A DNA stretch of 64,000 bases from the NCBI GenBank assembly GCA_051294905.1, contig CM119371.1, positions 17,610,001-17,674,000 on the forward strand, read 5' to 3'. The DNA comes from Botryllus schlosseri. Lineage: Eukaryota. Positions 17,756-59,013 of the stretch are shown piece by piece. The notes below the pieces were generated by a model. It made no database searches. It was given only the letters and a program-made list of their open reading frames with translations, and was not told where the DNA came from. The translations under genes were made by a program, and so were the position numbers. Numbering within the stretch: position 1 is the stretch's first letter; each line of letters begins with the position of its first letter.

Positions 17756-19021
17756 CAGGGCTTCGGAGCAGCCGTAAATTTAAACTGCTCCAGCTCCGGC
17801 TCCGGAGCGATCTTCTATCATACATTAGCTCCGGCTCCAGCTCCGGAGCCGCATTATAACCACTGCTCCGGCTCCAGCTCCGGCTCCGGCTCTGAAATTA
17901 TCGAATGGTCTTGTCTATATCAGGCGTGGTCCACAAATGTGGCCCACGAGAGGGTTTTGCGTGGCCCGCGAGGCAATGTCCTATTATATTATCGAAAATG
18001 AATTGCTCAGATTGTGAACTTGCAATGCCAACTAAAAATTACAATTCTGGCTGCGACACTTAGGATGTTGATGACTAAAATATCAGTTCCGACGCATTGG
18101 CAGATCCAGGGTCCAGTCATATATTCAATAAATCGTCGTACATTACAATAAACTAAAATAGGAGCAAAATTTTTCTTCACGCTTCGCGTGTTTAATTGTC
18201 ACACGATTTCTTGCTTGGTAGCCTACCCCCTACTGAAAATGAAAAAAACGCCTAATTTACCGGATTGAGTCTAACTCTATTTGCAATTACGGAAGAAAGT
18301 CTTTTCGCGTTTGCGCTCGCATAAAAATCGTCGATGGTGAAATGTAGGCACAAATGATTGTCGCATATCATCGGAGACCTTCGATAACGATGTGTCCAGA
18401 CGCCGAATAGTCGTGTCCTTGTAAAATGAGCCTAGCGGGTGGTATACAATAGACCCGCAATACTCACCTAGTTTATTTATAAACTTAGAAAATTTTACCC
18501 GCTTGGCGTGGCTAGTTGTCCGCGCACTCGTTCGTCAATTGCATGTGCCCCTTTAGCCGAAAAAATTGGCCATTCCTGTTCTATATAGATTACTAATCCA
18601 CTAATAGGTTCGATATCTATAGTAATCTAGAGTCCGTCAGCCGTCAGTAACATCCGATGTAGTAACAAAGACATATAGGTGCCGCCGTGCCGGCTTGTGA
18701 CTTCAAACTGAATACTTGTCAATTGTCGACAACATCATAGTTGCACTAGAACGCAATTTACTCCATGCCATTGCTGTGCACGGCATTAAAATTCAGGCCT
18801 GGTGTTCAATTATGATAAATCAGCAGATGTGGTTGTTGCATATAAAACAGCATCTTATGAAATAGGTCGGAGCCGGAGCTACTCCTCAAATAACGGGCTC
18901 CAGCTCCGGCTCCAGCTCCGGCTGAATTTTATGTAGAGCTCCGGCTCCGGCTCCAGCTCCGGTGAAAATGCACGGCTCCGGGGCTCCGGCTCCGGGCTCC
19001 GGCTCCGGCTCCAAAGCCCTG
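17756..19021. mobile_element. Non-autonomous hAT with (GCTCCG)n subterminal arrays
   Basis: TIR CAGGGCTTCGGAGC...GCTCCAAAGCCCTG; perfect 8-bp TSD CTTTTCGG. Confidence 0.9.
17921..18578 (+). mobile_element. hAT MITE family F, copy 1 (nested)
   Basis: CAGGCGTGG...CCATTCCTG; TSD GTCTATAT/TTCTATAT (7/8); homologous to 29007-29730. Confidence 0.8.
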
Positions 19022-23188: not shown

Positions 23189-24447
23189 GGTGTACCAGAT
23201 CCGAATTACAATGAGCTATCACAAAGGCAGGTTTATGGGTCAGTACAGGTTGACGCACAGGTTAATGAGCAGTATGGTACGATGTTACCTCAAAGGTGAT
23301 ACTGTACAACGCTTGATTGTGATGTCATAAGCAAATATTTCTCCTATTCATTTAGCAGTCGGCAATAGACCAATGGTTCCGTTTGGTGTTGGAAAGTATG
23401 CAGTTAACAAACATGTGTCCAGCTATAGTCATTTGTCTTTTAGTGATTTTTGAGGAAACCGCTGCGATAGCTCAGACTTCTCGAATCAGTACTTCCTACC
23501 CGACGTTAATAAATACCCCAATGCACATAAATGAAATGACGTAGCCAGCCAGGGTCGAAACAGCTTCCATGTTGAAATCGAAACCCTTTTGTTTTAAAAT
23601 GCCGATTTTATGTCCAATATTTCGCCATACATTTGCAATTTAGTATTTTGTTATTAGTGATGCCAATTAGCGACAATTGACTGTGTATAGCGGCATACGA
23701 TCTGAGGTGACTGACATCTCTTCCAGCCCATTTGCTACTATCGACTTTGTGTGGTGTGAGGCAGGCCTGATACGCAGTAGGCTGGCGCGCCTGCTATCAT
23801 CGCTGATCTGAATTACCACTTCTGCAGCAGTAGCTTTACCTACTCTCTGCCCAATACTGTTACATTTAGGTTGATTATCGTCCGTAATGTCATGCTGTTT
23901 TGGGGCTGACACGAAATAAATTCCAATTTGCGTGGCGGGCGGCCTAACTGGCTGCGAATAGACTCTGTGACCAAATACTATTTTGTTCAAATCCAATTTT
24001 TTTTGACGGCAATAACTCCGCTTCTACTGGTTGGAATTGAACCAAATTTGAAGAACATCATTTTTATAGACAACCTAATACTTTCATGGGGTGAACAGAA
24101 AAATTTCACATTTTTCGTAATTTATTTTTATATAATAAATAGAAAATTTCTTCTCCCGTAGCCATGCGGCTACTGGTTGGAATTGAACCAAATTTGGTGT
24201 GTAGGCTTAAGTTAGGTAACCAAACAATTTTATCAAGTAGCCAGTACGATTTGAGGAAAAAAGTCATTTTTGAAGACCCCTAATGAACAGGGGTGTACGA
24301 GTTTTGAGCAAACGTTAAAAGGGTGTACCACGTCGAAAAGGGTTGAAGAGCACTGCTCTAGACTACACAATAAAAATGATTGCTGGTTTGTTCGTGTTGA
24401 AGGTTACAAAGAAAAATGTATATGTCGATCTAAATTTAGTTTACACC

Positions 24448-25770
24448 AGTAGTATAGTAGATCGCTCGCATGCGGCCATGGGGTTCTTATGGGCCCGCTC
24501 GCATATCGCCGCGAAACTCGTGTTGGCATATCGCGCTTTTAGACCCCCCTTCCGCTGGCACATCGCCATTGGTTCTTATGGGTGCGCTCGCATGTCGCAC
24601 TTTCGGGTATGGGCATCTCTCGCACATCGCATGGAAAACTCGTGGTGGCACATCGCACTTTTAGGTATAGGCATCTCTCGCACATCGCATGGAAAACTCG
24701 TGGTCGCATTCGCCATGTGTTCTTATGGGTGCGTCGGCATATCGCACTTTCGGGTATAGACATCTCTCGCACATCGCATGGAAAACTCATGGTGGCACAT
24801 CCCCTTTTCGGGTATAGGCTGCGGTGATGATGTGCCTGTCATGTATTCTTACGGGATCTCTGGTGATTCCCCATGTGTTCTTATGGGTGCGGTCGTGATT
24901 CGCCTTTTCGGGTATAGGCTGCGGCGGTGAGGTGCCTGAAAACCCGGGGTGGTGACTCGCCTTTTTTGCTATAGGCGGTGGTGGTGATTCGCCTGTCGTG
25001 AGGCGATCGCTCGCATGACGCCATTGTGGCTTATGGGCGGGGTGGCGAGCTAACGAGAAACCGGGGGTGGCGAACTAACGTTTTCGTCTTATGGCGGGGG
25101 TGGCGAACTAACGTTTTCGTCTTATGGCGGGGGTGGCGAGCTAACGAGAAACCGGGGGTGGCGAACTAACGTTTTCGTCTTATGGCGGGGGTGGCGAGCT
25201 AACGAGAAACCGGGGGTGGCGAACTAACGTTTTCGTCTTATGGCGGGGGTGGCGAACTAACGTTTTCGTCTTATGGCGGGGGTGGCGAACTAACGTTTTC
25301 GTCTTATGGCGGGGGTGGCGAGCTAACGAGAAACCGGGGGTGGCGAACTAACGTTTTCGTCTTATGGCGGGGGTGGCGAGCTAACGAGAAACCGGGGGTG
25401 GCGAACTAACGTTTTCGTCTTATGGCGGGGGTGGCGAGCGGCTATTGATGCTAACACGAAACCCGGGGTGGCGAGCGGCACTTATTTCTTATGGCGACGG
25501 CTCTTATTTCTTATGGCGGGGGTCGCAAGCGGCTCTTATGTCTTATGGCGGGGGTGGCGAGCGGCTATTGCGTCTTATGGGTGCGGTCGCATGCGGCTAT
25601 TGTGTCTTATGGGTGCGGCCGTGAATCGCCCTTTCGGTATAGGCATCTCTCGCACGTCGTACTTTCGCATGTCGTGCTTTCGCGTATAGGTTGTGTTGGT
25701 GATTCGCCATGTGTTCTTATGGGTGTGGCGGTGATTCGTACTTTCAGGCATCTCTCGCGCGGTGTTGAAT
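24448..25770. repeat. GC-rich subterminal repeat zone of the left arm (58-bp repeats at 24590-24810; 33-bp/25-bp array at 25041-25437)
   Basis: Units GAACTAACGTTTTCGTCTTATGGCGGGGGTGGC (33 bp, 8 copies) and GAGCTAACGAGAAACCGGGGGTGGC (25 bp, 5 copies). Confidence 0.9.
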
Positions 25771-28184
25771 AGCCACCAACAATAACCGCACAAACGGAAA
25801 CGTGGCTTGTTGTGCAAAGGATTTACGCAGTGCGTGCGACCTATATTTCGAATGACCTGCGCGCTGAATTGTTTCCCATGCAGCTGTGTGCTACTATCGA
25901 TTATTACACTAATCCAGTCAGTGCGAAATAGTTTGCTAAATCTAGGAATCACTTCCAAGGTAATATTTTGGTAATTAGTTTACCACAGAGCCGTCGCAGA
26001 CGGTGATTCGAAAACCAACAATTTGGCACTTGCACGCGATCGCTATATGTTTTGACACTTCGAACAGTGGCTGACTTTAGTTGTATGATAAGAATCATGA
26101 AAATATTCAAGCAATGTGTCAATTTATCAACTTGAAATGAAACTTACTACACAACTCAAGTTGATTCTTATCTGAATGTATTAATTCGACACAACTCTAA
26201 TTCTTTTGAGAAATCCTAATAACGCGATCTGTTGAATCGAACGTAACCTGAATATTACTGACGCCGACTTTCATCCACATCGAATTATTCGCACATTCCG
26301 CGTCGCTGTTTCACGTCTATAGAATCAATACCAACTAGCTCAATGAGAGTCAGGAATCACAAGTATACACATACAATTATTGTATTTAACACTGAGAAAT
26401 CAAACGCTTAACAAAAACACGCAACTAATCATTTACCAACTCTAGCATTACCAAAAAAATTCAGGCATTGTTGATTGAAAATCCTTGAATCCTTATTATC
26501 AAAAAATGTTATAGTGCGGTGTCGGAGTCCATTCGCGGGATGCACTAAAGGTAAATCCAAATAATCCAGAATGAAATATTTGGACTTTGACATTGCGTGA
26601 ATTGAAATATGTTTGACAAACATGACTACCAACTTTCACCCAGTCACATTTCGAGATTATACGCCCATTGATTTGAAACAAGTAATGAAACATTACAACT
26701 CTATTCACGACCTGTCTTTACGTTTGTCAAAGAGAGTTTCAGTAATTACTATCGCGATATTTTAATGTGTTACTACACACAATAGAATCAATCAATGAAA
26801 TATCCCCCATTGCTGTAAACATTTCCAACTTGACAACCGCTTGCACATAACACGATCGAGTTGCAATGCGATTAGTTGAATCGGAATATTTCAACCTACT
26901 CTGTCATATCGCGATTTGAAGTAGGATTGCCAGACAGGCTGGGTAAACTTTCACTCTACTGCGTTTCAGATTAATTTATTCACACGATCACCATCTCGCT
27001 GTTTTCACACTTACACAATCGCGTGCTGTTCCCACTCCCAACTTCGGTACGATATTTCAACTTGCCACAATAACTGATTATTCACATGTTGATTTGAAAC
27101 AAAAGAAGCCTTGAACAAGTTATCTGGGTATTTTTTTGTCACAATTGAGTATAATGGAAATAGTATTACACCTCGAAATTTTAACATCTTACCATACTCA
27201 AAAGAGTCAATCATGAAAACCTTGTCAAGTAAATCCGTTTGTAACTCGGCCAACCAACTAGACAGTACCCATACAGAAAGAAGACAAGATTACGCGAGTA
27301 CATACAATCGCTACAATCTAAAATCCATAGCAAGTTCGGTTGTAGTCATATACCGCCAAATCGTCTTTTTTGTTCAACTGTAAAAGTCGTTACTATTCTG
27401 TAAGATAAAGTAATTACTACTCGGTATATTTTATAAACCAAAGTAAATACTACTCGGTGCGTACAACTTGGGATTAACATATGTTTTGAGTATATGATAT
27501 TTGAATGTCTGACCGATGTAGTTAAGAATTCTTACGATCGAACGGTGTTACATTGAAAGTTATCATGTTGTAAACATTCTTACTAACACGTTGGTTTGAC
27601 ATACGAGATTTTGTAATAGTCGATCACGACTTGATTAATAAATTATGACGTAATTAGACCGGGGTTGTGGTAAATGTTATGATAGCAACAAACTTTTCAG
27701 AAACATTGTTATTAACATATCGATTTGTAAAACTAGATTAACATATCTGAAATGCTTTGATTGGGAAGATTAAGCCGTGTTCGTAAAAACCACGCAGCGT
27801 ATTATTGATATCAGGAAATATTTTACAAATGTAATTGTCTCCAGTAACCAAGACTAAAGATGAAACAACAATTTCCTTTGTTGAACAATAACCGGTACAA
27901 TACTTTATCATCGTAATCTGCGGTGAGAATTGAAACACTTTCACACATTACCCGGTATCAAGATATCACACTAGGTGAATTGACATACCGCCGCTTAATT
28001 AATGCTTAATCCGTTCGCACCATTTCACATACTTTGGTCATCACAAAAGTAAGTTGGGATATGTTTGCTAGATGCATTCAATTCAGTTAGAAATGTCTGG
28101 TGCGCAACAATCGTAATATCAAGGAAGTACTTGCTACGCTGTAATTCAATTAACGTGTTTTGCATTGTTGTTCATTTGTAGTAT

Positions 28185-30898
28185 CAGTGGCGGCTCGTGA
28201 CAATATCGGGTGGTGGGGCAAGGGGTGCGAGTGACTTTTATCAACATGACGTCACAATGGCGTTTTCCAATGTAAAACAGTAACTTTATGGTCACATGAA
28301 TTTCCCAACAACAGTGATTTTAACGTAGGTGCCGCGAGAGGTTTGCCGGTGAGCCGTGACTTGAAGTGTGGTAAAAAATGTTTTATTCATTTTTTTTAAA
28401 TCAAAGGATTATTTTACAAAATGTACGTGAACTAAGAATCGTCACTGTGCCACGAATCAATTATCAGGCCATCCTTAGTAGCATGCGTTATGATTTCATG
28501 GTAGAGTTAGAGATTTTGCAAATCGATAGGCCCTAATTTTTCTAAGCCCGTACGAGAGTGTTTCGTACACGATATATTAGCACCCACGTCTTGTGAGTCG
28601 TTGGAGCAATAGGGATTAGGCTAGTCGATGCAACTGTTCTTTTGTGTTTCAGTTTGATCATTTATTACGGTATTTAACCTATGAATAAATGCAAAGTTGC
28701 ACAGATCCTGGTGTGTTACGACCACTGAGCTGGTGGTTACGACCAGGTGATAGGCAACCAAAGCGGAGGCACCCGGCGTACGATTGGATCAATGGACTGG
28801 ACAACTTAGACCTCTAATTTTCGCTCAAAAGGCAACTGCGTAAAATACGTACGGAGCAAAGATTCAATACGATTCATATTCGCACTTGACTAATTCCAAT
28901 GACTAGAACTCGACAGATTGAGTAAGCCTAACTGGAAAGGTCAACGAGTTCGGACACATACGCAATTGTTATCTCATAGATTGGGCCTGTCATATTGAAT
29001 CCAGATCAGGGCCGGCCAACCCGTGGCCCGCGGGCCAAATGTGGCCCGCGAGAAGGTTTTGAGTGGCCCGCGAGGTAATTTCCGAAATTTCTAATATCAT
29101 CAAAAATGGATTGCACAGATTGTGAACTTGCAAGGGCAACCAAAAATTTGATTAGTCTGGCCGCAACACTTGAGATGTGATGACTAAAATATCAGTTTCG
29201 ACTCATTGACAGATCCATCAACCATCCATATATTGGTATATCTTCGTACACTACAATAAAGCAGAATAATTTGCGATAGATTTATCAAAGGTAAAAATTT
29301 TCTACAAGCTTAGCGCAATATGTTGTCACTCGATTTCTTGTTCTTAATATTGTTACCCTTTTGTGAAAATTGAAGAACACCCACTGTATCAGATTGAGTC
29401 TAACTATATATTAGCGATTACGAGACAAAGTGTCGTTCAACATATGCAACCTTGCGTTGGCACTGGCAGTAAGACCGTCGACTATGAAACCTAGGCACGA
29501 TGATTGACGCATGTTGGTCGCAGCTTTCGATATCGATATGTCCATGCGCCGAATAGCCCAGTCCTCGCAAACTTAGCCCAGCGATATACAGCAGGCCCGC
29601 AATATAATCAAGTGACAATGTTATTGGCCTATGAACTTCAAAACAAATTCGCGCTTCGCGCGGATAGTGGCCGGCGCAAAAGTTCGTCAATCGAATGTGG
29701 CCCTTTGGCTGAAAAGGTTGGCCAGCCCTGATCCAGATGATCAATTTGAATGGTCTTTGAAGAACTAAGGACAGCAGCCTCGGAACTTCGGTCTCGGAAC
29801 AACATAGGAAATTTTGGCCTTGAAATTGGAGACTGTGACACAACACATACGGCTTACTGTCTATAAGTCTGCTGCGAAATCGTCGTTGGAAAATATATTA
29901 TTCAATAAATACATGAATGAAAGCCGCAAACTTAGTATACTGTTACAAGAAATCATCAAGAAGTAGCATAGGCCTACGCAGTCTCATACATAACCCATTC
30001 CGGCATGGTACACTGTCAAAATCTATACAAACATACGAACGCCGAACGGCTTTTGCGTAAATCTGCTAGCGATAAATGAAGAGTCAGCTCTCACTCGACT
30101 TCGGAAACGAAATTACCACCAACATAGTTCAGTGACAAACTTAAAACTTGTTTGTTACAGCGGTCGATACTACCATTAAGACTTAGTGTGCCAAACTGCC
30201 AAATGTCATGACCGATCTCGGTATGCAACATCGTCAAAATCAATGGAGACCAAATACCGGCTTTTGAGTAAAATCTGTTTGCTGTACAATGTACAATTGT
30301 ACATGATAGATCAGCACACACTATACTTCGGAAACGAAATTAGTACCCTTATCTTTAAGTATAGCAAGCCTGAAACTTGGAGCAGTGTTAAATACAACCT
30401 TCACGACATATCATACCAAGTTTCAAGAATTATCATGGTGCGAAACACCGTCAAAATCGACCTATACCAGCAAAGGTCGACTCAACGCATGTTACGGTAA
30501 CCGAGTTCAGATATAGATGCGATTGTTACATCACACCTTAAGGGCAACTAGGCATATTCGCCCCGGCTGCTCGGCCATTTTACGAATAGGAGAGAGTAAA
30601 TCACCGTTTCTTTATTGTGCGCGGCTTTGAGAGAATAGATAGTGAAAGCTTGTTATGAGCGCTACCGGGGCAAGCCCCGGCTAGGCATTCACAAAGCGAA
30701 AACACAGAAGAGAATTCGATTTTCGCAGATACTTCGCTATGTATGGGCATTTGCAAGCGAAAGCACAAGAAGAACGCGGGTTTCGCTGTGATCTCGGTAT
30801 ATATTGAGCGCTGTGCGTCTATAAATGGTTCAATTGTTATTGAACAGAATTTTAGGTGGGGCAATGCCCCAGTTGCCCTATAGGACGAGCCGCCACTG
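28185..30898. mobile_element. Non-autonomous hAT element (2.7 kb) inserted in the left arm
   Basis: Perfect 14-bp TIR CAGTGGCGGCTCGT; perfect 8-bp TSD TGTAGTAT; empty site seen in the right arm at about 44545-44556. Confidence 0.95.
29007..29730 (+). mobile_element. hAT MITE family F, copy 2 (nested)
   Basis: TIR CAGGGC(C/T)GGCCAACC; perfect 8-bp TSD ATCCAGAT. Confidence 0.9.
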
Positions 30899-33177
30899 TG
30901 TAGTATTGATTGTTTTTGAACCCCCAAATAATAATAATTCCCGACATGAAACCAAACCGCTGAAAGTCGTTACCATCACAACGAAACAATTTGTACGATG
31001 TTTACCAAATGTATCCTATAGTTAGGTGTACTAGAATTATTTGTCTAACACATACACCGACAATGCAATCGAAAATTTTTCCGTTGTCATTCGCTAAAGT
31101 AAATGTCATCACAATACTCTGTCACTAAAAGACGGTACTTGCATGTGATTGAATCCCTACCAACTCACTAAACCGAACTCCAAAGAAATTTTACTCACTC
31201 GACGGATATGAAACAGCGTCGCTTAATCGGTCTATATCGTTTTTCTAAAGGTAAATCATATCCATCCAATAGAAAACAATTTTCACTAGCTTGGTAATGA
31301 AACCGAAGTCTTCATTCGATATTTTTTTTGTGTCAAATACTTTGCAATAAACACATTTGAGTGGTTGAGCTTCACATCATCAAGCTGTCATTTGTAAATC
31401 AAGATTTCGGTAAACTTGTAAATGTATCGTTTAACTAACCGAGTTGTATGCACAGTTTGATATTTTTGTCATTTAGTGATTGTTGAACATACCACTTCGA
31501 AATACTGCATTGATCTTAATTTCCATCATCATGATAATCGAAGTACATTTATTTCAAATTCGTAACAACCGGCTTTTCTATGACATGATAAATTTTTGAC
31601 AAGTTATGCTTAGAAGATTGGTTGCATATCGCGAAAAATAATATACCACTCATATTGATGCTGTTACTCCATTGATCGATATTTTCAAACGAGTAAAATT
31701 TATTACTTGAGTTTCTCCGCTTAATGTAAATGAAAACTCAGCCGTCTTTTAACAACAAACAATGATAAAAAAGTAGGCAATCAAACACAACACTTTGTAC
31801 GACACTAATTATTGTTCCACACATCTCATTTCATACTAAGTTTATACGAAAGATATTCATGACACATGAAAATATTCGCTCATGCTACGAACATACGCAA
31901 TGATTGGTGGTGCTTTCAAACTGTTTCGATATCACAAGAACTTTATTGTCTGAATGGGTGTTCATGTATCTTAATAATCAAATAGTTCAACACAGAACTA
32001 GTACTAACAGAAACATCAGAGAGTTGTTTACACAAAAGTTTGTATGTGTACAGTATGTGAATACCATGTGTAAGTCCAGCACAATTGCAGTATCCATCCG
32101 AGTTTAGTCAACACAAATTTATTACAACGGAGCCACGTAAACTTTCGTGAAAGAAAAGCATACTCACTTCCAGAGGGTTATGTCAACACCATAGCAGTAA
32201 ATCAGCTACTCCAACAACAAAGTACATATGTTTCTAGCCACGGTCCTTACATCTTTCACATAGATCAATCTACTTTGCTAACGAAAAGTGCTGAGTCATC
32301 ACATGATCGCTCTCACAACAAAACAGCTAGTAGATATTATCATACAAAAATATTCCTAACCCTTTACACACCAGTGACAAATCATACAACGAATATGCTT
32401 TGCGGGTCGAATTGTTGTTCAGTGTCAAGTCTACCTGTTGAAACGTACATTAAAACAACACAGTCACAATTCAATTAAAACCACGAATCTATTTTCATTT
32501 CGTCACATACAGAAAAATAAATTTTCTTTCTCCAACACATACTTGTAACCAATCGCTTTCATTAAACACACAACTTCCTAAAAGTATTTACTTTCTACAA
32601 CATAGACATTCCGATGTAGTCAAGAAATATTTTTATTAATCAAAATCATCGATTTCTGTTCACGGCGTTAGTGTGTGCATGTCATACCTGTGGACCCCGT
32701 ATTAAAATGGACACGGCACGACTGAATGTAAGGGGGTAGAAGTCTATCGCATCGATTTACATGCGGTCTTCGCTACGGTTTCAAAAAAACGAATCATCTA
32801 TTTTGCATTGGTCGAGACCGAGCGAACCAGTTACATGTATTCGCGGTAATGATTTTGCTTGTCATATGCGAATGATAGGATTGCTACTCCGACAAATCAA
32901 CATACAACAATCTTCTGACGATCATAATGGCAATTTCATTTTCCGCCCATTCATAATTGTATACACACGAAAAGTATATTGTACAACTCGGTAACTACAT
33001 TTAACAAGACCAATCACACAACCAGCGTTCAACACAAGATACCTACCCAAGTAAAAATATCATTCTGGTTTGGACAACTGACGTTTACCTGTGTAAAATT
33101 ATCATTTTCACTTGGGGGTCCACCGTTACCTAACTAAAATACCATTGTCCTTTGAAGATTTATCGTTTACCCAATGT

Positions 33178-33570
33178 AACAAACCCCTTTTCACTTGGAA
33201 ATCTATTTTTGCCCTGGATAACAAACCCCTTTTCACTTGGAAATCTATTTTTGCCCTGGATAACACACCTTTTTCACTTGGAAATATACTTTTTCTCTGG
33301 GTAACAAACCTTTTTCACTTGGAAATATATTTTTTCCCAGAGTAAGAAACCTTTTTCACTTGGAAATCTATTTTTTCCCTGGCTAACAAACCTTTTTCAC
33401 TTGGAAATATATTTTTCCCCAGAGTAAGAAACCTTTTTCACTTGGAAATCTATTTATTCCCTGGGTAACAAACCTTTTTCACTTGGAAATATATTTTTTC
33501 CCAGAGTAAGAAACCTTTTCCACTTGGAAACCTATTTTTTCCCTGGGCAACAAACCTTTTTCGCTTGGTG
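33178..33570 (+). repeat. Minisatellite, about 40-42-bp unit, about 10 copies, left arm
   Basis: Repeated AAACCTTTTTCACTTGGAAAT(A/C)TATTTTT(T)CCC(T/A)G. Confidence 0.9.
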
Positions 33571-34433
33571 ATCCGTCGTTTACCTGAGTAAAAATATCAT
33601 TGTCCTTTGGGGATCTGGCGTTTACCCAGTGTAACAATACATTTTCTCTTGGTCATCTAGCTTTTCTTAGAGTAACAAAACCATTTTCATTTTGAAATCT
33701 GACAAACACACCTGACAATTTGTTGTATTGACGATAGTTTGAAATAGATTACAACGAACAGTGACGGAAATATACACGGACTACCGGTTTCAGAGTATAC
33801 CTCCATCAGTCGTATCACATCAATATCATCGGTTAACCACATACAATATGCTCTTGTACACAGAAATGCATGTTTTGGAAAATTGGACAATAGGCTTCGA
33901 TAGTTCTGTGATGTCCGGGTTCGTGCTTTGGATTTTCCAGAGTCAAAATGTCTGAATAAAACACCTCCTCGACGATGGTTGGTATGTGGATAACGGTGTT
34001 CGGAAAACGGTTGGATTTATGTCACCCATCGCGATAACAATTCCTGATCGAGTTTTCTCCCACATGTTTACTATATTGTGTCTTTATTGGTCAATGTATG
34101 TCTCGACATTCAGTTTGAAATCGGAAATGATAAAGTATGTAACCGGATCCGGATATCAACTCTGAATCGATAAACCAATGAACAATATTCAAAGTAAACA
34201 TGTTACACCCTGTGTTTCCACGAAAAAATACCATCCAGACATACGTCGCGCTTGTTTGCCCACACCAGTATACGCGCAAATGGAGGTGTGAGACATTGCA
34301 TGCAATGTGTTGGTATACAAACATCGATCCACAGACATTATCATAACCGGTAATTTTGATGCAGATCGAATGTCATCAAGCACACCCGATAACAATGTCA
34401 TACCAATAAGCCACATTGCAATGACTCTGAGTC

Positions 34434-35366
34434 CGCGCTATTACATCGATATTTCGACACCGTTCACTGATTTACTCGATGGTTTTATCGCGTTGTAACA
34501 TCACAAGATAGTCATGACCCTATCTCCAGACAGATCACCCAGACCAATTGGATACATCGGGCAATATCCAGCGTGATGTCGACACCGAAGTTCTCTGTTG
34601 TACAGCGTTTGACCAAGGTGAACTATCGAAGTACGGTGCTCGAAATGATTGCGATCAGTCTTTCAGTCACGATGCAAGGATGTCGCTATTCCCACATAAC
34701 GACTCCAGATAAATATCGTGAACAGTGATTCTGAAAATCTCTGACTGATACTGTCATCTAATAAGGTGTGTTTCTGTGGAATCAAGACTGTAATCGTACA
34801 CCACAATAGAACACTACCTCGCGATTTCACACACAATCATAAAACACATCATCGTAAGGGTCCAGTTCGTCCGGCAACATTTCGAAACGGTCATCGCCAC
34901 AAGAGATCGAGGTTGCGCTCGTCGTATCGGTGGCATTTTGACACTGTCATCACCACAAGGCTATTGACGTCGTTTCGGTTGGTCATGTCAATCCGTTTTA
35001 CAATTTACCGTTTTTCAACTCCACGCACCATAGTGTTACGACACAGACAAGAAGCGTCGGTGGAAATGATAAAACACGGAAGGCACACTTTGGTGTTATT
35101 TGATATGGATTTTACACCAGACGAACCTCACATTCGAGCGATGCATTTGAATGGTGATTGTATTATTGATGTCCAAGGAAAAGAAATGTATCGATTTATC
35201 GGTTTCGTACATATCCAACAAAAACCTGGGTATATGATTGTGCATGGTTCGCATATTCGACTGTGAACGCCCAATTGGTATATGTTGTACAGTTCACTTT
35301 CACCGTCGTGCGAATAACCCATGTTACGGCTCCATGTTTGTGTGTCTGTATGTCATGCTTCAGATT
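34434..35366. other. Unique 933-bp spacer (loop) at the palindrome centre, containing a 166-aa ORF (34766-35266, +) of unknown status
   Basis: Inverted symmetry stops at ATGACTCTGAGTC (34433) and resumes at GACTCAGAGTCAT (35367). Confidence 0.85.
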
Positions 35367-36221
35367 GACTCAGAGTCATTGCAATGTGACTTATTGGTAT
35401 GACATTTTTATCGGGTGACATTCGATCTACATCAAAACTACCGGCTATGATAATGTCTGTGGATCGATGTTTGTATACCAACACATTGCATGCAATGTCA
35501 CACACCTCCATTTACGCGTATACTGATACGGGCAAACAAGCGCGACGTATGTCTGGATAGTATTTTTTCGTGGAAACACAGGGTGTACCATGTTTACTTT
35601 GAATATTGTTCATTGGTTTATCGATTCAGAGTTGATATCCGGATCCGGTTACATACTTTATCATTTCCGATTTCAAACTGAATGTCGAGACATGCATTGA
35701 CCAATAAAGACACAATATAGTAAACATGTGGGAGAAAACTCGATCAGGATTTGTTATCGCGATGGGTGACATAAATCCAACCGTTTTCCGAACACCGTTA
35801 TCCACATACCAACCATCGTCGAGGAGGTGTTTTATTCAGACATTTTGACTCTGGAAAATCCAAAGCACGAACCCGGACATCACAGAACTATCGAAGCCTA
35901 TTGTCCAATTTTCCAAAACATGCATTTCTGTGTACAAGAGCATATTGTATGTGGTTAACCGATGATATTGATGTGATACGACTGATGGAGGTATACTCTG
36001 AAACCGGTAGTCCGTGTATATTTCCGTCACTGTTCGTTGTAATCTATTTCAAACTATCGTCAATACAACAAATTGTCAGGTGTGTTTGTCAGATTTCAAA
36101 ATGAAAATGGTTTTGTTACTCTAGGAAAAGCTAGATGACCAAGAGAAAATGTATTGTTACACTGGGTAAACGCCAGATCCCCAAAGGACAATGATATTTT
36201 TACTCAGGTAAACGACGGATC

Positions 36222-36615
36222 ACCAAGCGAAAAAGGTTTGTTACCCAGGGAAAAAATAGGTTTCCAAGTGGAAAAGGTTTCTTACTCTGGGAAAAAATAT
36301 ATTTCCAAGTGAAAAAGGTTTGTTACCCAGGGAAAAAATAGATTTCCAAGTGAAAAAGGTTTCTTACTCTGGGAAAAAATATATTTCCAAGTGAAAAAGG
36401 TTTGTTACCCAGGGAAAAAATAGATTTCCAAGTGAAAAAGGTTTCTTACTCTGGGAAAAAATATATTTCCAAGTGAAAAAGGTTTGTTACCCAGAGAAAA
36501 AGTATATTTCCAAGTGAAAAAGGTGTGTTATCCAGGGCAAAAATAGATTTCCAAGTGAAAAGGGGTTTGTTATCCAGGGCAAAAATAGATTTCCAAGTGA
36601 AAAGGGGTTTGTTAC
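36222..36615 (-). repeat. Mirror copy of the 40-42-bp minisatellite, right arm
   Basis: Repeated TTTCCAAGTGAAAAAGGTTT, the reverse complement of 33178-33570. Confidence 0.9.
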
Positions 36616-37054
36616 ATTGGGTAAACGATAAATCTTCAAAGGACAATGGTATTTTAGTTAGGTAACGGTGGATCCCCAAGTGAAAATGATAATTTTACAC
36701 AGGTAAACGTCAGTTGTCCAAACCAGAATGATATTTTTACTTGGGTAGGTATCTTGTGTTGAACGCTGGTTGTGTGATTGGTCTTGTTAAATGTAGTTAC
36801 CGAGTTGTACAATATACTTTTCGTGTGTATACAATTATGAATGGGCTGAAAATGAAATTGCCATTATGATCGTCAGAAGATTGTTGTATGTTGATTTGTC
36901 GGAGTAGCAATCCTATCATTCGCATATGACAAGCAAAATCATTACCGCGAATACATGTAACTGGTTCGCTCGGTCTCGACCAATGCAAAATAGATGATTC
37001 GTTTTTTTGAAACCGTAGCGAAGACCGCATGTAAATCGATGCGATAGACTTCTA

Positions 37055-40000
37055 CACTCTAAATTTAGAAGTGTTGCTCAACCCGGAAAATTGAACACGA
37101 TTTGTGATCCAAAATTGAACACTTAGAAGTGTTGCGAAGTGTTTAAATTTAAAGTGTTTACCTAAACAAGTGTTCAGTCTCAAAGTGGCTGGTTGACCTG
37201 TCACCGGAACGCAGGGCTCAAAATGAAATCGGATTTTATTGCTGCATTAATAAATGACACTTATAACACCCAACCTGGGCGAATATTGAATAAATACGTG
37301 CAAACAATCAAATTTCCAATAGCTGCTGTGACAGGGTTTTATAAATTCAAATCAGCAATTGAAACCGTTTCCGGAATAGTTCATGAAATCACCAACATCA
37401 CAAATGATTCAGAGCAAACTCACTACAAATATCATGCAACTCACTCAATCATGGGAATGAAAACGATGCACTGGGATAGTTATAACAAAATATCATTTAG
37501 TGTCTTAACTTTTCGTGACAGGGGCATGGAATCAAATTCATTGGTTACGTCCATTAGCAGAAAATAAGATCAACGCAAATCATTACAACTTATGGAAAAC
37601 GTATCAAATTATGGTTTGTAAATTGCAAAGTTTATTATTAACAAACAAAACAAATGTATCAGTACCACTACCACAACCAAGAAAACTAACCACAAGTATT
37701 TCTTCATTCTTAATGAAATTGGGCCCGCTAACCAGGCAACAAAAATATTCTAGTGCTTGCATTACAAGTATTTATATCAGGGTAATGCCAATCACTTTTA
37801 GTTTAAACAACATGAATGGTTTCTTCGATTCAATACAAATTTTGCAGATTTATAGAAAAGATTTTTGTTGTCCTTTACCACAGTGTGCTGCAAAAGAAAA
37901 TGAAATCTGGAAGTCATTACGGCAGTGGTTTCCAAAATGTCAACAATCTTTCTGAATGCTCCATCTTCGCCGAAGCATTTTTATATTCTTGCGATCAGCT
38001 GCAACCAAGGCTTGATGAATCTTTGCTTCGAGGCGTGCCATGGCGGCTCCGTCTTTTTACTGGTCGACTCCGAGTGGTGCTCCTTGAAAATATGAAATAC
38101 CAAAGTTTTGAATATGCCAAGGAAAATTCTAATTTTTAATCAGAAATAAATAAAAATATTTCAGATAGGTAGGTTACAGAAGCACGGGAAAGGCGCTCGG
38201 CTACATGTGAAATCCTATCACTGAGTTAGAGTAAGACTAAAATTAGCAAAACGACTAATAAAAATATCTTTAATCAGGTCTGTATTTTTTCTATTCGGCC
38301 ATTTTAACATTTACATTAACATGGCAGGCATTACCAGGCAACAATGAAAATGCTAAAATGTTACTTTGAATGAAATTCATAGCAAAACGTTGCAGGTCTT
38401 TCTAAACTTGTATGGCCCATAAAACAGAAAGATTACCTGATTCAATGATAAGACATACCCTCGGAACTTGAACATATATTCGTTTGTTACTCCATTTGGC
38501 TTGAAGAAGAAGACAGTTGACTGACTTCATCAACCTCATTTTGCTGAAAATAAAATTGATTGCAAACAAGATCAGACAATAAATATGACAAAATAATTTG
38601 TACTGATGGGGTTAGAATTGCTGTTTCTATGGGTTCAGATTTCCATTATGATAATTGACATACGATTTACATATAAATTTTAATCTAAGATCATATAGCT
38701 GCTTTGAATTTAGACGAGAAATATATCAGACAAAGGACACTTCGATCGTCTTTAGTGCAAAAACTTTGTTACATCTTATCGTAGGTGTTGAGAACTTTTC
38801 CTTCATTGCAGGAATTGTAACTGTTGTCAATCATTTAAAAATCCTTCATTCCTGATTAAATTTAATTAATGCAAATTGGAAATTCTCCTAATTTGATGTT
38901 CACCTAGTGCGTTATAGTTCAGTAAGACATACTTCAAATACAAGTTACACGAGCTCATTACGTTCAACTACATCTCTGTTCAATGTATACAGATGAAGCC
39001 TTTTTCAGCTCATATCGGCTCTACTAGATAGTTTGTGAGAAAAGTTGGACTGCAAAAAACCAGCACAAATGGTGATATATAAAATTAATAAATAGGCTTA
39101 CATATTCATACGTTTCCATGGGTTCGTGAGACAAACGCATGTATCGCATAAGATTACTTCACCGGGCAAAAATCCGTTACGAGTGAGTCCTCACGTCACC
39201 GTCAACATTGTCAGATAGCGCAGGCACAGTAGAAAAAGAGGGCTCTTTTCAAGAAGTTGACATCAGTTGGACGAATTTGAGGACCAATCCAAGACTAATG
39301 AATAGAAAATATTTTTTTCAAAAATTTGCAATAAAAGTGAACTAACTATTCAGTATTAACGCAGATATCAGACTAGATACAATTGTGCGTGACAGAAGTG
39401 TGTCTTTCATAGAATAATTAAATAATGGAATGGAAAGTTGCACGTAACGCTACCACCAATTTTACTCTGGCACAGGTAGCATACTTCCTGGATTATTAAT
39501 CATTTTAGTGAATTTTATCCGCAAACATTCAGGAAAATCTTTATCACGAAGGTAAATTCATTATCTAAGGATATACCAGTTTACTTACGAAACACTGCGA
39601 TGCTTACCAGTATTTCAAACACCAAATGCATTTCAAAAAGGTGCCAATTGCCATACATACTACCTGCACTTTACGGCATTTTTCATATTCTTTCCATCAG
39701 CAGCAACGCAGGCTTGACGAGTCCCTGATTCGTGGCGTGCGATGGCGGCTCCATCTTTTTACTGGTCAAATCCAAATGCTTCTCCTAGAAAATACGATAA
39801 ATACCAAAGGAAAATTGTAAATTTTATGCAGAAGTAAATATAAATATTTCACACAGGTAGGTTACAGAAGCGCAGGAGAGGTGATCAGCCCCCCCAGGTT
39901 GAGAACCACTGACCTAGCCCATTATAGTTCAGTAAGCAATAGTTGAAGTACACGTTACACGAGCTCATTACGTTCAACTACATCTCTGTACAGTGTACAC

Positions 40001-42715
40001 AGATGAAGCCTTTTTCAGCTCATATCGAATAGTCCGTAAGCTACTCTGCGAGATAGTTCGTGAGAAAAGTAGGACTGCAAAAACCACCAAATTACATAAT
40101 CAATGGAGATATATAAAATGAATAAATAGGCTTACATAATCAACAGTATCCATGGGTTCTTGAGACAAAGGTCTGTATCGCATAAGATGACTGTGCCGGC
40201 ACAAAACCCGTTACGAACGACTCCTCGCGTCACTGTCAACATTGTCTGATACCGCAGGCACGGTAGACCCAGGGGGCTCTTTTCAAGGAGTCGACATCAG
40301 TTGGACGAATTTGAGGATCAATCCAAGACTATTGAAAAGAAAATATTTGTTTCAAAAATTCGCAATACAAATGAACTACCGTACTCAGTAATCACACAGA
40401 TATCATACTGGATACAGTTGTTGTTTTCTGCAATAAGTTGTGCGTGACAAAAGGGTGTCTTTCATAGAATAATTAAGTAATGGAATGGAAAGTTGCACAT
40501 GACGTTACCACCAATTTTACTCTGGCACAGGTAGTATACTTCCTGGATTGTTAACAATTTTAGTGAAATTTTATCAGCAAACATTCATATAAATCTTTAT
40601 CACGAAGATAACCGAATGCAACAGAATCAACTTCATTATCTAAGGATATACCAGTTCACTTACAAAACACCGTGATGCTTACCAGTATTCCATACAGCAA
40701 ATGCATTTCAAAAAGGTGCCAATTTCAATACATACTAGCTGCAAAATAGAGTTTAGTTCAGTTACCGTATCATAATAAACTCAGGAAAGTCAAATTTGGG
40801 GATTGGGCAAAACAAATACTACCCCTTGTGATCCATGGTTTATTGAAAAGATTGTTTGTTTGGCTGTGCCATTATCAGGGCGATTTGTTGGACCTAAAAT
40901 AGGATGATTTCGACCGAATGACCCAAATTCACATATGTTTTGACAATAAAAACTTAATTTTGACCCCATGTACTTAAATTAGGTGTTTCTCACATAATGT
41001 TAGAATTGTACTACCGCGTCGGTACTTATCTTTATTTCTGGCGCTGGAGCTGTCTGTTATTCTGAGGTAGTTTGAACTGAAAAAAGATCTTTTGGCATGA
41101 ATACTGACAAATTTTCACATGAAAAAACCTTAGTTTATCGAAATCTCGACCCATGAAGAATTCCAGTATTAGTTACATCTCGTATCATGGTAAAAATAAT
41201 AAAAACTTTTTGTTGTACAACAAAAGATACTTTCCTACATTTTCGGCTAGAAAGTGTCTGTCTTTACTAAGTAGCTTTACAAGAATGGAGAAAGAACGTT
41301 CACCAGCAGCAGTTGTTGGCCAGCAACAATGAAGTTGTGCGTACACTACAGATGACACACCGTGTTGCTTCATTATGACAAGGTTGTCTACATCGTAATT
41401 TTTCATCATACGGTGTCTAATAGAAGAACCAATGCCCACGCATTCTTGCTTCAGTTAGGATTACTGCAGTAGGCTACGTTGAGCATTTGTTTCATTTCAC
41501 AGTTTATAATTCACAATGAGCAGACGATGGTCCGTCTACAACGGTAGGACTATAAAGTAGGCTACAAGATGTAATTTGTAAGATGATAAGTTCAGCGACA
41601 GTGCAATCAACTATGATACAAACGAAATGCAAGTTGCAAAAAAATTTTGACTTTTTAAACAGTTTTGGCAATATTTGACCTAACGGTACAATTTTGACAA
41701 AATTTTGACCTATTTTGACATGTCAAAAAAATCGCCTTAGTTAACACCTTACCACTTGGAATAAACAGTACAGTGTAAAATATGTTGCAGTTGAAAAACC
41801 ATCAAACCTTTGCATGACTGTCATACCGGTATTCAATTGCTGACATTGCAGTACTTGTCCACAATGCACCGTAATATCGCCTTCATAGGGATATTTCAGT
41901 GTGGATAGAGAGAACATTACTTTATCTATATATCAAAAAAGTTAGTTCGATAGCAGCTTCCCATCAGTACCGTAGTACTGGACCTGGTCGCAGCCTGGTA
42001 TATTATCAGATTCGAAGCTCGATCAACCAGCAATAAGATCAAACGAATCATATACTACAAAACATCCAAAGAACATTCATATGAATAAGGGATATCAGTA
42101 GCCTACTAAAACATCTAAAACAAACGACCTTACTGCAATGTCAAAACGAGCTCATTTTACGACTATTCTCACATTACATATAATCAATAACGTTTACCGC
42201 ATTTCCATACCTTACAGTATAGGGATGTTATGATCCTTTACGCCATCAGGTAGCAGAAACTGCTTCAATATATCCATTCCGCCAAGTCTTTTCGTGTATT
42301 CTACTCTCTGCCTGAAGCCTGACGAACCACCAATTCAAATTTCAAACTTAAATCGAGCGCGCTCTACCGTAACGAAGGTGGTGACCCCTCTGCGTCACAG
42401 GGAAATATATTTTATTGAAATAATACCCTCAAACTTAGTGGTTTGGTCAATTGAATAATATTATTTTACATATACCATAATTTTATGTGAAGCCCAAACG
42501 CACCGATAGTTTATGAATGCGAAATTGATGATAAATTACCAAGCATAAATTTTATTGAAAGTAAGCCGCAGTCGCGAAGTGTTACATATAAACGGAGAAA
42601 TACGCAGAAGCGTTGCGACGATAATGGCCCAATGCGTTTACATGCCCAAAAATTGTGCCTGTACGCAGAATAAAGTGTTATGAAGTGTTCAATACGACCT
42701 CGCGGATTTAGAGTG
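37055..42715. mobile_element. CMC/EnSpm-like DNA transposon derivative (5.66 kb) inserted in the right arm
   Basis: TIR CACTCTAAAT...ATTTAGAGTG; 2-bp TA duplication; the left arm shows the empty site (GGGGGTAGAAGTC at about 32732-32744); AAGTGTT/AACAC subterminal repeats. Confidence 0.75.
41185..41345 (-). pseudogene. hAT transposase C-terminal dimerisation-motif remnant
   Basis: PTTAAGERSFSILVKLLSKDRHFLAENVGKYL matches the hAT P-x-T-x-x-x-ERSFS motif; lies in a CAGGGCGATT...AATCGCCTTA-bounded segment (about 40876-41739). Confidence 0.65.
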
Positions 42716-45700
42716 TACCCCCTTACATTCAGTCGTGCCGTGTCCATTTTAATACGGGGTCCACAGGTATGACATGCACACACTAACGCCGTGAACAGAA
42801 ATCGATGATTTTGATTAATAAAAATATTTCTTGACTACATCGGAATGTCTATGTTGTAGAAAGTAAATACTTTTAGGAAGTTGTGTGTTTAATGAAAGCG
42901 ATTGGTTACAAGTATGTGTTGGAGAAAGAAAATTTATTTTTCTGTATGTGACGAAATGAAAATAGATTCGTGGTTTTAATTGAATTGTGACTGTGTTGTT
43001 TTAATGTACGTTTCAACAGGTAGACTTGACACTGAACAACAATTCGACCCGCAAAGCATATTCGTTGTATGATTTGTCACTGGTGTGTAAAGGGTTAGGA
43101 ATATTTTTGTATGATAATATCTACTAGCTGTTTTGTTGTGAGAGCGATCATGTGATGACTCAGCACTTTTCGTTAGCAAAGTAGATTGATCTATGTGAAA
43201 GATGTAAGGACCGTGGCTAGAAACATATGTACTTTGTTGTTGGAGTAGCTGATTTACTGCTATGGTGTTGACATAACCCTCTGGAAGTGAGTATGCTTTT
43301 CTTTCACGAAAGTTTACGTGGCTCCGTTGTAATAAATTTGTGTTGACTAAACTCGGATGGATACTGCAATTGTGCTGGACTTACACATGGTATTCACATA
43401 CTGTACACATACAAACTTTTGTGTAAACAACTCTCTGATGTTTCTGTTAGTACTAGTTCTGTGTTGAACTATTTGATTATTAAGATACATGAACACCCAT
43501 TCAGACAATAAAGTTCTTGTGATATCGAAACAGTTTGAAAGCACCACCAATCATTGCGTATGTTCGTAGCATGAGCGAATATTTTCATGTGTCATGAATA
43601 TCTTTCGTATAAACTTAGTATGAAATGAGATGTGTGGAACAATAATTAGTGTCGTACAAAGTGTTGTGTTTGATTGCCTACTTTTTTATCATTGTTTGTT
43701 GTTAAAAGACGGCTGAGTTTTCATTTACATTAAGCGGAGAAACTCAAGTAATAAATTTTACTCGTTTGAAAATATCGATCAATGGAGTAACAGCATCAAT
43801 ATGAGTGGTATATTATTTTTCGCGATATGCAACCAATCTTCTAAGCATAACTTGTCAAAAATTTATCATGTCATAGAAAAGCCGGTTGTTACGAATTTGA
43901 AATAAATGTACTTCGATTATCATGATGATGGAAATTAAGATCAATGCAGTATTTCGAAGTGGTATGTTCAACAATCACTAAATGACAAAAATATCAAACT
44001 GTGCATACAACTCGGTTAGTTAAACGATACATTTACAAGTTTACCGAAATCTTGATTTACAAATGACAGCTTGATGATGTGAAGCTCAACCACTCAAATG
44101 TGTTTATTGCAAAGTATTTGACACAAAAAAATATCGAATGAAGACTTCGGTTTCATTACCAAGCTAGTGAAAATTGTTTTCTATTGGATGGATATGATTT
44201 ACCTTTAGAAAAACGATATAGACCGATTAAGCGACGCTGTTTCATATCCGTCGAGTGAGTAAAATTTCTTTGGAGTTCGGTTTAGTGAGTTGGTAGGGAT
44301 TCAATCACATGCAAGTACCGTCTTTTCGTGACAGAGTATTGTGATGACATTTACTTTAGCGAATGACAACGGAAAAATTTTCGATTGCATTGTCGGTGTA
44401 TGTGTTAGACAAATAATTCTAGTACACCTAACTATAGGATACATTTGGTAAACATCGTACAAATTGTTTCGTTGTGATGGTAACGACTTTCAGCGGTTTG
44501 GTTTCATGTCGGGAATTATTATTATTTGGGGGTTCAAAAACAGTCAATACTACAAATGAACAACAATGCAAAACACGTTAATTGAATTACAGCGTAGCAA
44601 GTACTTCCTTGATATTACGATTGTTGCGCACCAGACATTTCTAACTGAATTGAATGCATCTAGCAAACATATCCCAACTTACTTTTGTGATGACCAAAGT
44701 ATGTGAAATGGTGCGAACGGATTAAGCATTAATCAAGCGGCGGTATGTCAATTCACCTAGTGTGATATCTTGATACCGGGTAATGTGTGAAAGTGTTTCA
44801 ATTCTCACCGCAGATTACGATGATAAAGTATTGTACCGGTTATTGTTCAACAAAGGAAATTGTTGTTTCATCTTTAGTCTTGGTTACTGGAGACAATTAC
44901 ATTTGTAAAATATTTCCTGATATCAATAATACGCTGCGTGGTTTTTACGAACACGGCTTAATCTTCCCAATCAAAGCATTTCAGATATGTTAATCTAGTT
45001 TTACAAATCGATATGTTAATAACAATGTTTCTGAAAAGTTTGTTGCTATCATAACATTTACCACAACCTCGGTCTAATTACGTCATAATTTATTAATCAA
45101 GTCGTGATCGACTATTACAAAATCTCGTATGTCAAACCAACGTGTTAATAAGCATGTTTACAACATGATAACTTTCAATGTAACACCAGTGTTCGATCGT
45201 AAGAATTCTTAACTACATCGGTCAGACATTCAAATATCATATACTCAAAACATATGTTAATCCCAAGTTGTGCGCACCGAGTAGTATTTACTTTGGTTTA
45301 TAAAATATACCGAGTAGTAATTACTTTATCTTACAGAATAGTAACGACTTTTACAGTTGAACAAAAAGACGATTTGGCGGTATATGACTACAACCGAACT
45401 TGCTATGGATTTTAGATTGTAGCGATTGTATGTACTCGCGTAATCTTGTCTTCTTTCTGTATGGGTACTGTCTAGTTGGTTGGCCGAGTTACAAACGGAT
45501 TTACTTGACAAGGTTTTCATGATTGACTCTTTTGAGTATGGTAAGATGTTAAAATTTCGAGGTGTAATACTATTTCCATTAACTCAATTGTGACAAAAAA
45601 AATACCCAGATAACTTGTTCAAGGCTTCTTTTGTTTCAAATCAACATGTGAATAATCAGTTATTGTGGCAAGTTGAAATATCGTACCGAAGTTGGGAGTG

Positions 45701-46964
45701 GGAACAGCACGCGATTGTGTAAGTGTGAAGACAGCGAGATGGTGATCGTGTGAAAAAATTAATCTGAAACGCAGTAGAGTGAAAGTTTACCCAGCCTGTC
45801 TGGCAATCCTACTTCAAATCGCGATATGGCAGAGTAGGTTGAAATATTCCGATTCAACTAATCGCATTGCAACTCGATCGTGTTATGTGCAAGCGGTTGT
45901 CAAGTTGGAAATGTTTACAGCAATGGGGGATATTTCATTGATTGATTCTATTGTGTGTAGTAACACATTAAAATATCGCGATAGTAATTACTGAAACTCT
46001 CTTTGACAAACGTAAAGACAGGTCGTGAATAGAGTTGTAATGTTTCATTACTTGTTTCAAATCAATGTGCGTATAATCTCGAAATGTGACTGGGTGAAAG
46101 TTGGTAGTCATGTTTGTCAAACATATTTCAATTCACGCAATGTCAAAGTCCAAATATTTCATTCTGGATTATTTGGATTTACCTTTAGTGCATCCCGCGA
46201 ATTGGACTCCGACACCGCACTATAACATTTTTTGATAATAAGGATTCAAGGATTTTCAATCAACAATGCCTGAATTTTTTTGGTAATGCTAGAGTTGGTA
46301 AATGATTAGTTGCGTGTTTTTGTTAAGCGTTTGATTTCTCAGTGTTAAATACAATTATTGTATGTGTATACTTGTGATTCCTGACTCTCATTGAGCTAGT
46401 TGGTATTGATTCTATAGACGTGAAACAGCGACGCGGAATGTGCGAATAATTCGATGTGGATGAAAGTCGGCGTCAGTAATATTCAGGTTACGTTCGATTC
46501 AACAGATCGCGCTATTAGGATTTCTCAAAAGAATTAGAGTTGTGTCGAATTAATACATTCAGATAAGAATCAACTTGAGTTGTGTAGTAAGTTTCATTTC
46601 AAGTTGATAAATTGACACATTGCTTGAATATTTTCATGATTCTTATCATACAACTAAAGTCAGCCACTGTTCGAAGTGTCAAAACATATAGCGATCGCGT
46701 GCAAGTGCCAAATTGTTGGTTTTCGAATCGCCGTCTGCGACGGCTCTGTGGTAAACTAATTACCAAAATATTACCTTGGAAGTGATTCCTAGATTTAGCA
46801 AACTATTTCGCACTGACTGGATTAGTGTAATAATCGATAGTAGCACACAGCTGCATGGGAAACAATTCAGCGCGCAGGTCATTCGAAATATAGGTCGCAC
46901 GCACTGCGTAAATCCTTTGCACAACAAGCCACGTTTCCGTTTGTGCGGTTATTGTTGGTGGCTC

Positions 46965-48137
46965 TTCAACACCGCGCGAGAGATGCCTGAAAGTACGAAT
47001 CACCGCCACACCCATAAGAACACATGGCGAATCACCAACACAACCTATACGCGAAAGCACGACATGCGAAAGTACGACGTGCGAGAGATGCCTATACCGA
47101 AAGGGCGATTCACGGCCGCACCCATAAGACACAATAGCCGCATGCGACCGCACCCATAAGATGCAATAGCCGCTCGCCACCCCCGCCATAAGACATAAGA
47201 GCCGCTTGCGACCCCCGCCATAAGAAATAAGAGCCGTCGCCATAAGAAATAAGTGCCGCTCGCCACCCCGGGTTTCGTGTTAGCATCAATAGCCGCTCGC
47301 CACCCCCGCCATAAGACAAAAACGTTAGTTCGCCACCCCCGCCATAAGACGAAAACGTTAGTTCGCCACCCCCGGTTTCTCGTTAGCTCGCCACCCCCGC
47401 CATAAGACGAAAACGTTAGTTCGCCACCCCCGGTTTCTCGTTAGCTCGCCACCCCCGCCATAAGACGAAAACGTTAGTTCGCCACCCCCGCCATAAGACG
47501 AAAACGTTAGTTCGCCACCCCCGGTTTCTCGTTAGCTCGCCACCCCGCCCATAAGCCACAATGGCGTCATGCGAGCGATCGCCTCACGACAGGCGAATCA
47601 CCACCACCGCCTATAGCAAAAAAGGCGAGTCACCACCCCGGGTTTTCAGGCACCCCACCGCCGCAGCCTATACCCGAAAAGGCGAATCACGACCGCACCC
47701 ATAAGAACACATGGGGAATCACCAGAGATCCCGTAAGAATACATGACAGGCACATCATCACCGCAGCCTATACCCGAAAAGGGGATGTGCCACCACGAGT
47801 TTTCCATGCGATGTGCGAGAGATGTCTATACCCGAAAGTGCGATATGCCGACGCACCCATAAGAACACATGGCGAATGCGACCACGAGTTTTCCATGCGA
47901 TGTTCGAGAGATGCCTATACCTAAAAGTGCGATGTGCCACCACGAGTTTTCCATGCGATGTGCGAGAGATGCCCATACCCGAAAGTGCGACATGCGAGCG
48001 CACCCATAAGAACCAATGGCGATGTGCCAGCGGAAGGGGTGTCTAAAAGCGCGATATGCCAACACGAGTTTCGCGGCGATATGCGAGCGGGCCCATAAGA
48101 ACCCCATGGCCGCATGCGAGCGATCTACTATACTACT
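46965..48137. repeat. GC-rich subterminal repeat zone of the right arm (array 47297-47545)
   Basis: Reverse complement of 24448-25770 but with 5x33-bp and 3x25-bp units. Confidence 0.9.
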
Positions 48138-58768: not shown

Positions 58769-59013
58769 CGTTTTGGGTACACGGCTGATTGCGCAGGATT
58801 ATTATAAAAATGAAAAATGCCTGTACACAAAGCTTGGCTCGTTTTGCACGGTACATTCCTTCTGTACCATGTTCAGGAAAACGAGAAATTAGATAGAACT
58901 AAAATGATAGCTTAGGAACATTTCATAGGTAAAATTCGAAAAAGATTTCAAGAATTTCGCTCTAAATTACTCTAATCATGCAACTAGAATTATCTAGTTC
59001 GTCAGAGTCTCAC

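Follow-up and report, generated by a model that had tools for sequence, protein, structure and literature searches.

The element and its setting

The window, by which we mean the whole 64,000-nucleotide stretch of Botryllus schlosseri DNA that was analysed, holds a Polinton/Maverick-type element at 24448-48137. Self-comparison of the window resolves the element into one large inverted repeat in three blocks (Table 1). Without its nested insertions it measures 15,305 bp, made up of arms of 7,264 and 7,108 bp and a spacer of 933 bp. The ends are AGTAGT, with the element starting on AGTAGTATAG and finishing on the reverse complement. A direct 6-bp target-site duplication, TACACC, flanks the element on both sides, and the element interrupts a host repeat whose intact paralog at ~22650-22930 has a single TACACC. 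Foldback transposons of the Galileo/Mutator type make target duplications of 7 to 11 bp, a range that the 6-bp duplication here falls short of.

Table 1. Coordinates of the palindromic element and of the features discussed in the text (positions in the window).
Feature	Position	Strand	Remarks
Left target-site duplication	24442..24447	+	TACACC; paralogous empty site near 22740-22745 has one copy
Left arm	24448..34433	+	7,264 bp without nested insertion; begins AGTAGTATAG
Nested insertion, left arm only	28185..30898	.	2.7 kb; 14-bp terminal inverted repeats; 8-bp target duplication
Tract without any arm difference	31323..32943	.	1.62 kb; mirror ~36848-37055 + 42716-44131; spans right-arm insertion site
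41-bp tandem array in left arm	33176..33568	+	mirror copy 36223-36615
Innermost shared, family-uncommon letters	34047..34062	+	arm-to-arm copying at least this far in
Inner zone, left arm	34203..34433	+	12 substitutions and a 9-bp indel against right arm
Spacer (loop)	34434..35366	.	933 bp, unique
Putative spacer ORF	34985..35266	+	93 aa
Inner zone, right arm	35367..35588	-	probably the arm with most odd letters (4 of 12 shown, 10 at most)
Right arm	35367..48137	-	7,108 bp without nested insertion
Nested insertion, right arm only	37055..42715	.	5.66 kb; CACTCTAAAT ends; TA duplication
Right target-site duplication	48138..48143	+	6 bp

Each arm carries one insertion of its own. The insertion in the left arm, which we take to be hAT-like, includes a stretch that is 70% like 17934-18581. 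The one in the right arm is presumably EnSpm/CACTA-like, and the four of its frames that we scanned gave nothing above the Pfam cut-off. There are also GC-rich 33/58/91-bp subterminal arrays (25030-25440 and 47297-47555) that differ by 149 bp in length between the arms.

Stop-free frames in the element reach no more than 173 codons. We found no gene for pPolB, integrase, ATPase, protease or capsid, and a Pfam search of 14 element frames gave 13 without a match and one below the cut-off. The ORF in the spacer hit no Pfam family and no viral relative; in Atlas it scored 0.90 at best, against unnamed bacterial clusters, and recognition stayed under the threshold. Eight variants are listed for this ORF, half of them synonymous (4 and 4), and its coding status is unproven. 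In the X1 sequencing run, 36,513 contigs lie on the 1,657-bp stretch 33710-35366, with many variants and several spacer junctions, a depth that does not equal copy number. Judged by these contigs, again with depth not taken as copy number, the many dispersed copies of a non-autonomous Polinton derivative appear to be present. Since no core genes were found and the repeats are oversize, we regard the element, from its sequence, as behaving like a non-autonomous derivative and not like an autonomous Polinton.

Elsewhere in the window, 59013-59924 on the minus strand is an uninterrupted 304-codon CD36-family frame (PF01130, E 3e-79), perhaps a large exon or else a processed copy. A frame at 5405-5716 resembles a C-type lectin exon by eye and has no Pfam match. 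An exact tandem duplication of ~440 bp (100% identity) at 10663-11542 is either a recent duplication or an assembly slip.

Divergence between the arms

We aligned the left arm with the right arm, skipping the one arm-specific insertion in each, and obtained 7,103 columns with 42 substitutions and 8 indels. The inner 231 bp hold 12 of the substitutions (5.2%) and a 9-bp indel, which is present in the left arm at 34374-34382 and missing from the right arm. The original prediction had counted about 13 substitutions and this indel in the innermost 340 bp, mostly near the loop, and the count turned out to be exact: one substitution is at 34097, 327 bp from the loop, and the other twelve are at 34203-34411, none of them more than 221 bp away. 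The outer segments had been called essentially identical, and this did not hold. Over their 6,871 columns they differ by 30 substitutions (0.44%) and 7 indels, including the 149-bp difference in the tandem array. The four ORF pairs given as identical do start in gaps between the listed differences, two of them within the 1.62-kb tract of Table 1 (pairs compared by position).

At the outer rate, about 1.0 substitution would be expected in the inner zone (Poisson p 1e-9), and when every 232-bp segment is scanned, the excess has p 5e-6 (1 in 200,000 shuffles). Differences in the outer arms fit a uniform spread (KS p 0.43), as do those within the inner zone (KS p 0.89). Among the models that we fitted, a step had the lowest AIC (485), followed by a floor with an exponential (490), log-linear (513), linear (515) and uniform (517) profiles. 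The step is placed 221 bp from the loop, with a likelihood range of 192-385 bp. An arm-long gradient is therefore rejected, as its AIC of 513 or 515 is barely better than that of a uniform profile and far from that of the step. The profile is best fitted by a single step, without a trend across the outer 6.87 kb. Steep local decay near the loop (exponential, scale ~170 bp) is only 4.5 AIC units behind the step and stays in contention.

The step is found at one border only. At the outer end of the arms there is no erosion (1/231 against 12/231 in the inner zone, Fisher p 0.003), and the four borders made by the nested insertions have 0-2 substitutions per 231 bp. The difference-free tract is longer than expected (p 0.002 with all events counted, 0.003 with substitutions alone); it may be a later conversion tract or an effect of polishing.

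The inner differences are also uneven in kind. The 9 inner transitions all have the same direction, which holds for 8 of the 18 outside (Fisher p 0.009, post hoc), and 7 of the 10 putative right-arm changes are at C on one strand (p 0.004, post hoc). Transitions in the spacer have no strand bias (8 vs 8), so the one-directional inner-zone bias (9/9) is not repeated there. We rejected CpG decay as the cause of the inner differences, as only 1 of the 11 inner sites examined is in a CpG context and the window has a CpG ratio of 1.04. Local templating was likewise rejected, with the 13-mers around 11 inner sites each occurring once in the window. No inverted similarity continues into the spacer. 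In a predicted fold of 34150-35640, made without a shuffle control, the stem closes despite the mismatches.

Relatives of the element in sequencing-run contigs

For a sample of the family, we aligned contigs of 4 of the 24 listed runs (X1, X6, X16 and X18) to 33710-35366. What follows refers to the 40 of 128 rows of the variant table that we saw; contig depth is not copy number, and the phase of the variants can seldom be read. X1 is possibly the source sample and does not count as independent, X18 comes from a different study, and X6 is labelled as another organism.

Outside the step, the two arms share letters that are uncommon in the family. At 34047 the letter common to both arms makes up at most 0.4% of contig depth in all four runs, and each of the three organism-A runs has four further shared letters (33802, 33862, 34045 and 34062) as minority variants. 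Rare letters shared in this way mean that one arm was copied onto the other after those changes arose, and that the copying went at least to 34062, 371 bp from the loop.

Inside the step, the odd letters belong to either arm. At 34291 and 34346 the right-arm letter stands at 95-100% of contig depth, so the odd letter there is that of the left arm. X6 has one contig (depth 170.6) that is identical to the left arm over 34148-34264 and is the sole cover at 34223. From this contig, that is, from one run with another organism label, the right arm would be the odd one at 34203, 34232, 34262 and 34263. These six sites are therefore not fixed left/right differences of the family. The six other inner sites have no variant rows, and the left letter is probably not rare at them, since the table would have retained a row near 100% in the deep arm. 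The odd letters look lopsided, with 2 on the left against 4 shown and up to 10 on the right (counting the six unlisted sites as changes of the right arm gives binomial p 0.04).

The right-arm haplotype (34353, 34362 and the 9-bp deletion) appears as a loose end in X18, where one contig matches at 25 of 25 letters, and 7 X16 contigs have a shorter version with one difference. Such contigs may stem from siblings or from this locus in other individuals. The zone 34370-34400 has further common length variants. We dropped the reading of the indel as a fixed 50:50 difference between left and right, because the 4-bp and 5-bp deletions among the variants differ from the 9-bp one. The original prediction had held that the same inner differences in sibling copies would mean that they predate the insertion. 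The right haplotype does occur in two other studies, but six of the twelve sites are not fixed between left and right. We conclude that the inner differences mostly predate the insertion, but that at least 6 of the 12 give no family-wide left/right signature.

The same 16 letters of the spacer stand at no more than 10% in each of the three organism-A runs, where the age of the insertion would give 2-3. This excess places the lineage before the insertion, and the palindrome is older than its present site, as had been predicted. Rare letters amount to 1/493 in the outer arm, 2/231 in the left inner zone and 16/933 in the spacer (outer arm vs spacer p 0.01). X1 and X18 both have contigs that switch strand at 34433 with other spacer ends (35354, 35308, 35197), so the inner boundary is common to siblings.

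About one third of the words of the stretch are held by several seawater metagenomes, one hot-spring metagenome and data under three other organism labels; the contig alignments above cover X6 alone among these. A search with the sibling pattern gave 0 matches in viral contigs. It gave 4 in metagenomes and 3 in prokaryote genomes, which we put down to chance because all 7 loci match only a 19-21-base seed.

Origin of the step

Our preferred explanation, on which we are evenly divided between belief and doubt, is that the step was left when one arm served as template for the other while a helper replicated this non-autonomous Polinton-type palindrome. For this, a single strand would fold back, either as a nascent strand that has run past the loop into the second arm or as a displaced strand whose 3' arm has been trimmed back. 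The ~200-350 bases at the inner end of the second arm would then pair with the first arm, act as primer and stay unrewritten, and the remainder of the second arm would be synthesised on the first arm as template. Beyond the switch point, the arms would have been identical at insertion and would then have drifted like an LTR pair (0.44% now); the priming segment and the loop would retain older differences (5%). Copying the 3' arm anew from the 5' arm takes a primer segment that is not itself rewritten, which predicts a step and not a gradient. Copying would probably have taken place at or near mobilisation, since the arms beyond the step look like a clock that started once, with a helper polymerase as the likely agent and the inner zone as the likely primer.

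In its available text, PMC11886824 gives panhandles as the usual model for restoring homology in protein-primed genomes and says that direct evidence is still lacking. A racket-shaped single-stranded intermediate has been proposed for Polintons (PMC4196379, available part).

The support comes from a single phased copy with Polinton-type ends, an excess of age inside the step, and copying that stops short of the loop. Fold-back copying is also favoured by 34291 and 34346, where the rare letter of the left arm did not pass to the right arm, by the uneroded outer end, and by the occurrence of the right haplotype in X18 and X16. Three observations count against it. A simple clock predicts an even split of the inner changes, and they look lopsided; a neutral reset does not predict an outer arm nearer to the family than the spacer is (p 0.01); and the 64-kb window holds no helper element. 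In addition, the identical tract in the middle of the arm does not come from a reset anchored at the ends, so another process also acts.

The original prediction offered panhandle replication or gene conversion, working from the ends inward, as the source of the likeness between the arms. The feature is real, the gradient is the wrong shape for it, and the interpretation was partly right. Arm-to-arm copying that does not reach the innermost ~220 bp is borne out; progressive copying from the ends is not, as likeness is no greater at the outer ends of the arms than in their middle parts. The two mechanisms were merged there, though they differ in what they predict, and we treat them separately.

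The first of the other explanations, which we think unlikely, is that the element is a chimera of two subfamilies. Here, the spacer and the inner right arm would come from a divergent sibling and would have been joined to common-type arms by recombination or a template switch. The step would then be a recombination junction and not a clock of arm age, although one arm-to-arm copy is still needed for the outer parts. The left arm is close to the family and the spacer more distant, most of the inner differences are probably on the right arm, and the right inner haplotype is seen in other studies. The two observations on lopsidedness (p 0.04) and on the nearness of the outer arm to the family (p 0.01) also favour a chimera. 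However, the left inner zone has two rare letters as well, and no donor copy was found among the contigs of the four runs, in the variant rows seen.

Host gene conversion between the arms, as in Y-chromosome palindromes, could also leave a step if it were inefficient near the non-homologous loop; we consider this improbable. Palindromes of the Y type are expected to have reduced correction at every non-homologous border, and what we found is that the outer end and the four insertion borders are uneroded. The arms have drifted by 0.44% and have kept two arm-specific insertions, so conversion here would be slow. In favour of host conversion, the identical tract (p ~0.002) comes close in length to the 2,068 bp given as the mean minimum tract for human palindrome P6 in the available text of PMC3723533, and the available text of PMC8600007 has the P6 arms changing more slowly than the spacer, the same as here.

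Even less probable is local hypermutation, in which the inner zone would have mutated faster through single-stranded exposure or error-prone repair beside the loop. The uniform direction of the inner transitions and the right-arm changes at C would fit, both of them post hoc results. But a rate ~12 times higher is required, the spacer is the part expected to be single-stranded and has no strand bias, and part of the right inner haplotype is common to other samples.

Assembly or read error, or chance clustering, is very improbable: although the right-arm letters mirroring 34203, 34232, 34262 and 34263 are absent among the variant rows seen and polishing could have produced the identical tract, the scan statistic, the opposite-strand joints at 34433 in X1 and in X18 from a different study, the direct target duplication in a split host repeat with an empty paralog nearby, and the arm-specific insertions with their own duplications all argue otherwise. 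A read that had folded back would give neither such a target duplication nor such insertions, which bears out the earlier view that this is not a fold-back sequencing artefact.

More tentatively, and with rather less conviction than for the single element, we suggest that every round of mobilisation in the family rebuilds one arm from the other through fold-back copying, beginning at a distance of a few hundred bases from the loop. If this is true, each copy would record its own switch point and two clocks, the outer one giving the age of the insertion and the inner one the time since a deeper reset. The folded single-stranded intermediate of Polintons would then have left a fossil record in the family. 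Computation alone can test whether the many copies have their step at a recurring distance from the loop, and such a step would separate a replication-linked reset from host conversion. Dating of such elements by arm-to-arm divergence must omit the inner zone.

Comparison with known systems

Kapitonov and Jurka reportedly described, in 2006, a zebrafish non-autonomous Polinton that is nearly wholly palindromic with a short loop; we know of no arm-divergence profile for it. In the literature that we searched, mostly without subscription papers and supplements, we found no description of a step in arm divergence in palindromic Polintons.

Vertebrate Maverick/Polinton elements have (AGT)2//(ACT)2 ends, a 6-bp target duplication, an intact length of 12.7-24.6 kb and inverted repeats of 46-1,447 bp, according to the available text of PMC8097293. 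The element is like them in its 5'-(AGT)2//(ACT)2-3' ends, its 6-bp target duplication and its 15.3-kb length. It differs in having inverted repeats of ~7.1 kb and no core gene that we could find, and its arms far exceed the ~50-1,500 bp of Maverick/Polinton terminal repeats. Butterfly polintons (bioRxiv 10.1101/2025.02.07.637071, available text) are similar in having enlarged (~2-kb) inverted repeats and in moving after the loss of polB. They differ in having capsid and protease genes inside their repeats, and the word 'palindrom' is absent from the available text.

In adenovirus and PRD1, one terminal repeat can be repaired from the other on a folded single strand (PMC11886824, available text), much as we propose. 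Those repeats are short and belong to free viruses, and there is no genomic record of switch points, as far as the same text goes. Palindrome P6 of the human Y chromosome shares arm-to-arm copying and arms that are slower than the spacer, and its kilobase tracts have a candidate counterpart here. However, it is a fixed host locus that relies on host recombination and has no mobility (PMC3723533 and PMC8600007, available parts). The candidate here for an interstitial conversion tract of the Y type is the one 1.62-kb identical tract, which may be a product of polishing. Homogenisation of arms is also known from the inverted repeats of plastids (PMC7663068, available part). Copying between arms is thus already familiar from Y palindromes and plastids, and what the element adds is the step near the loop, which bears on the upkeep of identical ends in Polintons and other protein-primed genomes.
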